A DNA stretch of 64,000 nucleotides from Botryllus schlosseri. Lineage: Eukaryota. The notes beneath the pieces are model-generated. The model saw only the letters and a list, made by a program, of their open reading frames with translations. It was not told the origin of the DNA and did no database searches. How positions within the stretch are numbered: position 1 is the first letter of the stretch; each line of letters opens with the position of its first letter. This document shows positions 3,371 through 4,145 of this stretch, piece after piece. Where the stretch lies: the NCBI GenBank assembly GCA_051294905.1, contig CM119372.1, forward strand, positions 23,190,001 through 23,254,000. Reading direction: 5' to 3'. The translations under genes were made by a program, and so were the position numbers.

Positions 3371-3983
3371 CTATTCTTTCAATTCAACAAGTCTAGTTAA
3401 CGGATCGATTTTCAAGCTGCCGACACAGTTTTTAACACGAGTGAGTTGATATTTCTTCCCGGGTACGAGCGAGGCTTTTCTCCATTGATCCAAAACCACC
3501 TCGCCAGTATCATCCTTCAATGTAAAACTGTATAATTTCAACTCCTTTCCGACACCAGAATTGACCATCTTCTCCTCTCGAGAAACACAAGTAGCGGCGA
3601 TCGAGACGTATTCATCTTTATTTCCGTATACCGATTCACAGGTCAATAATGGGTATTCTTCAGTCGTATGTCTCGATTTTCCATGTAGAGTTACTGACGA
3701 AGCCCGACCAAGTAATACAGCGGGTTTTCCAGTAAATTTATCAATTTGAACCCAACCGGATTTGACCATGAGTTTTTTTTCGTTTGGTGAATGCTTTCTC
3801 AATGTTCCCGAACAAATCACGATTGAAACACGTGAAAGATATCTCTTCGTTATTGCCATCGATGAATATACCTTTGAGATATTGGCTAACGCCACCTCTT
3901 TTGGGCGATGAGACGAATTTGACGCCGACGTGAAAATTTGAAGTTGCTCCGACTTGCATAGTGTTGACGCTGTTCGATGCCAT
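3371..3983 (-). CDS. Tandem OB-fold (RPA/SSB-like) protein, about 203 aa after correcting a 1-nt frameshift in the A8 run at 3773-3780
   Basis: ORFs 3741-4013 and 3371-3895 join as ...AFTKRKK/LMVKSGWVQ.... Each half has the OB pattern (LKGIFIDGNNEEISFTCF; YSFTLKDDTGEVVLDQW...LVPGKKYQLTRVK). TATAAATA lies upstream on the minus strand at 4023-4030. Confidence 0.6.
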
Positions 3984-4145
3984 ATCGTTTGATAAAGTGG
4001 GAGTCATCAACAAACCCGTCGATATTTATAGAATTAGGCACGTGGTATTGAGTGAGTTAACAGTCTTTGTATAATCATGATGACCCGCGTGAATAGACTT
4101 GGATTGAAATAAACTTTACAGGAGTTCTGTAAGAAAGGACGCCGT

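Follow-up and report, generated by a model that had tools for sequence, protein, structure and literature searches.

We analysed a 64,000-nucleotide stretch of the Botryllus schlosseri genome (assembly GCA_051294905.1, contig CM119372.1, positions 23,190,001 to 23,254,000; hereafter the window), which holds a Polinton/Maverick element. On the minus strand, near the left end of this element, lies a gene predicted to encode two oligonucleotide/oligosaccharide-binding (OB) folds of the kind found in replication protein A (RPA). We consider it reasonably probable that its product coats the displaced strand in protein-primed replication, driven by a DNA polymerase of the pPolB type acting in trans. 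A protein that binds single-stranded DNA (ssDNA), termed an SSB, for strand-displacement replication, as an original prediction from the sequence had proposed, is the best reading of this gene, and its product is predicted to bind ssDNA.

In the window copy, as had been claimed, the gene is divided between two overlapping minus-strand frames, 3741-4007 (88 aa from the first ATG) and 3371-3859 (162 aa), and an 8-base homopolymer (3773-3780) falls within the overlap of both. Read across the break, with an X at that site, the fused product comprises 212 aa from position 4010 or 203 aa from an ATG at 3983; the latter is the likelier start, judged from the sequence, because a TATA box lies at 4030 (minus strand), and its length fits the predicted protein of about 203 aa. 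A search of the fused reading against 5.8 billion proteins reduced 138 candidates to one match, P0002, an ENA record of 198 aa from a single contig of 3664 bases. In P0002 both halves lie in one frame. It is identical to the window reading at 190 of 197 residues (96%), and the alignment is free of gaps over these 197 residues, so that the two copies differ by substitutions only. Because this independent record aligns ungapped straight across the break, the two halves constitute one gene, with the following features:

3371..3983, minus strand: tandem OB-fold gene, about 203 codons from the likelier start, broken in the window copy
3682..3959, minus strand: first OB-like domain, limits approximate, including the break (residues 1-104 of P0002, by model comparison)
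3374..3661, minus strand: second OB-like domain, limits approximate (by feature score and Pfam and NCBIfam profile matches)
3773..3780: homopolymer run breaking the frame in the window copy
4025..4030, minus strand: TATA-box-like site upstream of the OB gene (consensus match, putative function)

The frame break is a slip in the homopolymer, either in the animal or in the assembly, and we regard the two as about equally likely: homopolymers are the usual site of assembly error, and on the side of mutation, the window copy has other private differences and an insertion. Reads or contigs from 4 of 24 listed runs were compared with the window (contigs of X1, X3 and X6; single-cell RNA of X24). Sister copies do differ from the window at the break: by depth, 72 of 71.9 in X3, 64.7 of 153.2 in X6 and 4295 of 40532 in X1 (13 contigs), and X24 adds 3 of its 5 raw reads. 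Short contigs ending there may account for the low share in X1 and X6. Since other copies differ at this site, the frameshift is a property of the window copy or of its assembly and not a regulatory feature; the break is incidental and by itself of no interest.

Both halves of the protein are predicted to be OB folds, with unequal firmness. We found that all ten listed structural neighbours of residues 1-104 in the Atlas model of P0002 (predicted template modelling score, pTM, 0.54; predicted local distance difference test, pLDDT, 0.78) align at TM-scores of 0.75-0.84 over 99-104 residues, models being compared with models. Nine of the ten are named or annotated as OB, RPA or MEIOB, including archaeal RPA-like, plant RPA70 and MEIOB clusters, and two reach the bar for the family name PF01336. 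The second half shares 178 of 256 language-model features with a cluster of archaeal RFA1-like proteins (feature score 0.94) and matches Pfam PF01336 at E 0.05-0.15. Against 18950 NCBIfam models, P0002 gave only two matches, both to SSB families (E 0.0027 and 0.016), spanning residues 79-179 and 135-169; the scores, 16.8 bits for PRK07218 and 15.4 bits for PRK06461, do not reach the cut-offs of 447 and 188. In a control, of 95 open reading frames (ORFs) upstream of pPolB genes at other loci, one reached E<=0.02 with a model of an SSB or of RPA: the RPA-like gene of locus L036, described below. The case for an OB fold is strong, at the level of models, for the first half and moderate for the second.

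The claim that both halves show the OB motif was borne out in part. As originally written, the D-x-x-G/E pattern and the G-x-x-Y-x-L pattern each occur once, both in the second half; the first half is matched only by a loosened pattern, which occurs once per half and is held twice by 0 of 20000 shuffles, a weak result because the loosening followed inspection of the sequence. The wider claim, that the halves resemble RPA or archaeal SSBs, holds for the first half through its structural neighbours, and less firmly for the second through its weak profile matches and feature score.

The protein is basic (pI 9.5) and has 15 aromatic residues. It is predicted to consist of two barrels only, with four scattered cysteines and no zinc site, extra interaction domain or acidic tail; it would be built like the core of RPA70 formed by DNA-binding domains (DBD) A and B, or like a small archaeal RPA, with no further parts. 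It would share with RPA70 (RPA1) DBD-A/DBD-B and with MEIOB the two OB domains per chain, and its first half reaches TM-scores of 0.78-0.81 to RPA70 and MEIOB clusters. Unlike RPA70, it is only about 200 aa long and has no N-terminal interaction domain, zinc-ribbon DBD-C or trimer core (RPA layout as given in excerpts of PMC8210275); it is encoded by a Polinton and has no significant sequence match to RPA70. The combination of four OB domains, N-terminal interaction domain, zinc-ribbon DBD-C and heterotrimer that defines RPA70/RPA1 is not found in it, and in profile searches P0002 matched neither the rpa1 nor the Rep_fac-A_C model. The archaeal RPA/SSB proteins (PRK07218, PRK06461; clusters of PF01336, PF21473 and PF17244) are nearest by features and structure and supply the only NCBIfam matches, but scores of 15-17 bits stand against cut-offs of 188-447, and resembling archaeal entries does not point to an origin in archaea. 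The protein would be built like RPA DBD-A/B while falling outside both the RPA70 and the archaeal families as these are defined.

We next consider the carrier of the gene, whose remaining features are as follows:

2168..17958: Polinton/Maverick element with AGTAGT ends and a perfect 6-bp target duplication
2162..2167, plus strand: left copy of the 6-bp target-site duplication
2168..3239, plus strand: left terminal inverted repeat, with AGTAGT end and a 419-bp insertion inside it at 2512-2930
4146..4499, minus strand: accessory ORF of 117 aa without a family, missing from some other copies
4961..5842, plus strand: accessory ORF, 293 aa, no family
6440..9886, plus strand: pPolB, 1148 codons open, catalytic acidic residues replaced, C-terminal end lost
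10660..11268, plus strand: packaging-type ATPase (Pox_A32 at E 0.008, below cut-off; similarity to other loci)
11977..13047, plus strand: rve integrase with chromodomain
13304..15194, plus strand: three related ORFs in tandem, all three matching the same ORF in L043 and L072
15568..16839, plus strand: probable major capsid protein, no Pfam match
16776..17279, plus strand: adenovirus-type protease (E 2.6e-8 to an ORF of L013 that itself matches Peptidase_C5)
17316..17958, plus strand: right terminal inverted repeat
17959..17964, plus strand: right copy of the 6-bp target-site duplication

The element has the terminal inverted repeats with (AGT)2 ends and the 6-bp target duplication of a Polinton, as well as the core set of pPolB, rve integrase, ATPase, protease and capsid genes, the capsid labels coming from position, homology to other loci and general knowledge. 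We take 15568..16839 to be the major capsid gene from its position and from general knowledge; on the same grounds the tandem ORFs at 13304..15194 are presumably minor-capsid-like. Each of these three matches one single ORF of other Polintons, which suggests a probable triplicated minor capsid gene. The terminal repeats are identical over 344 bases and then differ at 2 of 309, a total of 2 differences in 653 bases. Because of this near-identity and the perfect 6-bp duplication, the window Polinton is young and recently inserted.

Its polymerase is another matter. We aligned 60 of 93 matches; among the 160 columns that are 90% conserved in these homologues, the window pPolB departs at 39, and no homologue departs at more than 25. 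Exonuclease I, motif A and motif C have other residues in place of their invariant acidic ones, and about a hundred residues are missing from the C-terminal end, so this pPolB is catalytically dead, and the element lacks the catalytically intact pPolB of an autonomous Polinton. The element layout and the pPolB alignment bear out the description of the OB gene as non-core, carried by a Polinton and adjoining a dead pPolB. Of 7 long contig pieces from other runs, 3, all from X6, have fewer differences from the window than would be needed to undo the pPolB departures, so the decay is partly family-wide. Since the terminal repeats differ so little, we infer that the element moved after its polymerase had died. 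The frame is open for 1148 codons, although neutral change in 10-20% of residues (an assumed range) should have introduced 7-15 stops; this hints that pPolB is kept for a non-catalytic role, possibly as a pseudo-polymerase. Polinton pPolB carries an N-terminal terminal-protein domain, according to excerpts of PMC11161782.

Other copies of the OB gene are abundant. Its summed contig depth exceeds that of pPolB 20.9-fold in X1, 5.9-fold in X3 and 2.9-fold in X6, the same direction in 3 of 3 runs, although a ratio of contig depths is not a copy number. In X1, the bin that contains the 5' end of the OB gene marks a drop in depth from 76,000 to 13,000. In the X24 single-cell RNA (about 3% of the run read, 575 reads placed), 55% of the depth lies in two bins at the 3' end of the gene, and RNA at the gene is 55:1 in the minus-strand (sense) orientation. 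Only 14 of the 575 reads are at least 99% alike to the window, which makes other copies the main source of the transcripts. Of the 24 listed runs, 14, under 4 organism labels, contain at least half of the words. In other copies the OB gene is whole and transcribed, and it is far more abundant than the core genes. At 3547-3556, the loose ends of 24 and 12 RNA reads share one divergent sequence; they represent a subfamily that is expressed and has a different predicted loop in the second domain.

We then compared 74 pPolB loci, drawn from the best 80 of at least 582 matches. No sequence relative of P0002 was found in the 74, but one locus, L036, from an unrelated Polinton, carries an RPA-like gene of its own. 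L036 has an AGTAGT end at position 7; in its left accessory region, between this end and a pPolB whose motifs are intact, an ORF of 160 aa (2388-2867, plus strand) lies behind a TATA-like site. The ORF matches PF08646 (Rep_fac-A_C) at E 2.7e-6, just under the cut-off, and rpa1 at E 4.8e-4, and its best PDB match is RPA1 (E 0.016); it encodes a zinc-ribbon domain of the RPA70 DBD-C type, which cannot be aligned to P0002. Upstream of it is a degraded NADAR gene. Another ssDNA-binding fold, a PC4-family ORF (E 1e-8), is present at 1823-2131 (minus strand) of L046, upstream of pPolB-like sequence and possibly within a Polinton. Because its RPA-like gene adjoins an intact pPolB, L036 speaks for a protein that helps protein-primed replication and against the use of a host polymerase.

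Together, these results lead us to propose that the OB protein would coat the displaced strand as protein-primed replication proceeds from the terminal repeats, just as DBP does in adenovirus. The polymerase may be a functional pPolB that another Polinton, a putative helper, provides in trans, because the family's own pPolB was apparently already dead when the window copy inserted. Candidate polymerase-less derivatives might, in turn, retain the OB gene since it would raise their own replication.

Several observations weigh against this proposal. The pTM of the Atlas model is 0.54, 8 of the 10 aligned rows fall below the bar for a family name, and all profile matches lie far below the family cut-offs; the first half has no match in NCBIfam or at Pfam level, and P0002 has no significant sequence match in the PDB. 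Our searches, among them those of the 5.8 billion proteins and of the 74 pPolB loci, found no homologue outside this family. AlphaFold2 models built without an alignment reached pLDDT values of 33.5 and 40.8, and searches with both gave no OB match. OB folds also bind RNA and proteins. The excess of the OB gene is one of contig depth, and an RPA-like ORF is present in only 1 of the 15 loci with at least 3 kb upstream (L036), most pPolB loci having no detectable SSB; a protein as diverged as P0002 could, however, be missed in other loci.

An alternative is that the protein binds ssDNA so as to keep host RPA, checkpoint, nucleases or deaminases off Polinton replication intermediates. In its favour, the two DNA-binding-type barrels come without the interaction modules by which RPA signals (layout from the PMC8210275 excerpts), and high copy depth and expression are uncoupled from the core genes. 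A replication SSB shields as well, however, so the data cannot separate the two; the alternative is compatible with displaced-strand coating rather than exclusive of it, and as the primary role we consider it unlikely.

Slightly less likely still, in our judgement, is an OB gene that was captured (from host RPA1, a Helitron or a MEIOB-like gene) and does something else, for example binding RNA, or that is a passenger amplified only through its proximity to the terminal repeat. Its start lies some 130 bases inside the left repeat, so that satellites derived from the element's end would multiply it passively, and Helitrons repeatedly capture non-essential RPA domains (excerpts of PMC11417382 and PMC6431247). 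There is, however, no sequence trace of host RPA, and any capture must therefore be old; the X1 depth drops exactly at the 5' end of the gene; and the gene retains its TATA box and is transcribed, with P0002 differing by substitutions only.

The original prediction also suggested that the OB protein, next to a dead pPolB, could help to recruit a heterologous polymerase. Recruitment of a host or other such enzyme would suit a pPolB that is dead, in part family-wide (3 of 7 contig pieces), in a copy that nevertheless inserted recently. The idea loses because the two basic barrels offer no interaction domain or acidic tail, and because the RPA-like gene of L036 adjoins a working-looking pPolB. 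In addition, pPolB in trans accounts for mobility without new machinery, and protein-primed ends require a terminal-protein-primed enzyme (PMC11161782 and PMC4889955, in the sections available); we regard such recruitment as improbable. Least probable is that the second half, or both, adopts another beta-rich fold: the alignment-free models gave no OB match and the profile matches are weak, but at pLDDT 33-41 those models are uninformative, and three separate methods (features, Atlas structure and NCBIfam profiles) point to OB.

Displaced-strand coating, our preferred reading, has precedents in other pPolB systems. Viruses with pPolB often encode an SSB, and a 2016 survey describes these, in the text available, as unrelated to OB proteins (PMC4889955); a remote likeness to OB folds was reported for the Bam35 SSB, as the first such case (excerpts of PMC8276246). 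Adenovirus DBP, the phi29 and Bam35 SSBs and PRD1 P12/P19 would be analogous in their job, the coating of a displaced strand, but are non-OB or remotely OB-like (same excerpts of PMC4889955 and PMC8276246), whereas the window protein would belong to the archaeo-eukaryotic RPA class. In the profile searches the OB protein has no Pfam match to the families of these SSBs, at E<=1 for adenovirus DBP and phi29/Bam35. Helitrons and Helentrons likewise carry an RPA-like accessory gene on a eukaryotic mobile element (PMC11417382, PMC6431247, in part), but the gene here is carried by a Polinton, which has terminal repeats, an integrase and a pPolB, and not by a rolling-circle element; window positions 1-25000 hold no Rep or helicase ORF of the RepHel type. 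The window element resembles vertebrate Polintons, as excerpts of PMC8097293 describe them, in its AGTAGT ends, a size within 12.7-24.6 kb, its core genes and an accessory region adjoining the repeat, and differs in having all core genes on one strand, a dead pPolB and an OB-fold accessory gene, which those excerpts do not mention. The literature searched, supplements aside, contained no description of an OB/RPA-type SSB in Polintons and assigned no ssDNA-binding protein to them.

Other features of the window deserve brief mention. The 419-bp insertion at 2512-2930 in the left terminal repeat has short inverted ends of its own and a TA duplication, like a miniature inverted-repeat transposable element. 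A 106-bp segment (4760-4865), 79% like part of the terminal repeat (2956-3055), lies directly upstream of the TATA-like site of the ORF at 4961, and contig depth is raised there too. Several X1 contigs skip about 545 bases (4103-4658, with ORF 4146-4499), so some copies are without this ORF but retain the OB gene. A second pile of single-cell RNA, in plus-strand orientation, lies at 10461-10700 between pPolB and the ATPase. A host-type MFS transporter ORF (18016-18960, plus strand) starts about 50 bases past the right end of the element, and the insertion may affect it. Positions 40300-46200 hold dense direct and inverted repeats of 100-480 bases each at 90-98% identity, and a 472-aa frame at 48871-50289 (plus strand) is, by eye and from general knowledge, presumably the RNase H end of a non-LTR (long terminal repeat) retrotransposon.

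A broader scheme, which we offer only tentatively, is that animal Polintons have repeatedly taken up OB proteins of the RPA class as a replication module that has been overlooked, gained more than once (tandem A/B-like here, zinc-ribbon C-like in L036). Labour might then be divided among a polymerase-dead family with capsid and integrase genes, a much larger pool of SSB-only derivatives giving most of the transcript, and a separate working pPolB, with the pseudo-polymerase frame kept for a non-catalytic role such as that of a terminal protein. The OB protein would be a small, soluble candidate for a direct binding assay, and the degree to which its gene outnumbers the core genes gives a hint of the contribution made by non-autonomous derivatives. 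If true, the presence of RPA-class SSBs in two Polintons that are not related to each other would supply a component so far lacking from the replication set of adenoviruses' presumed ancestors.
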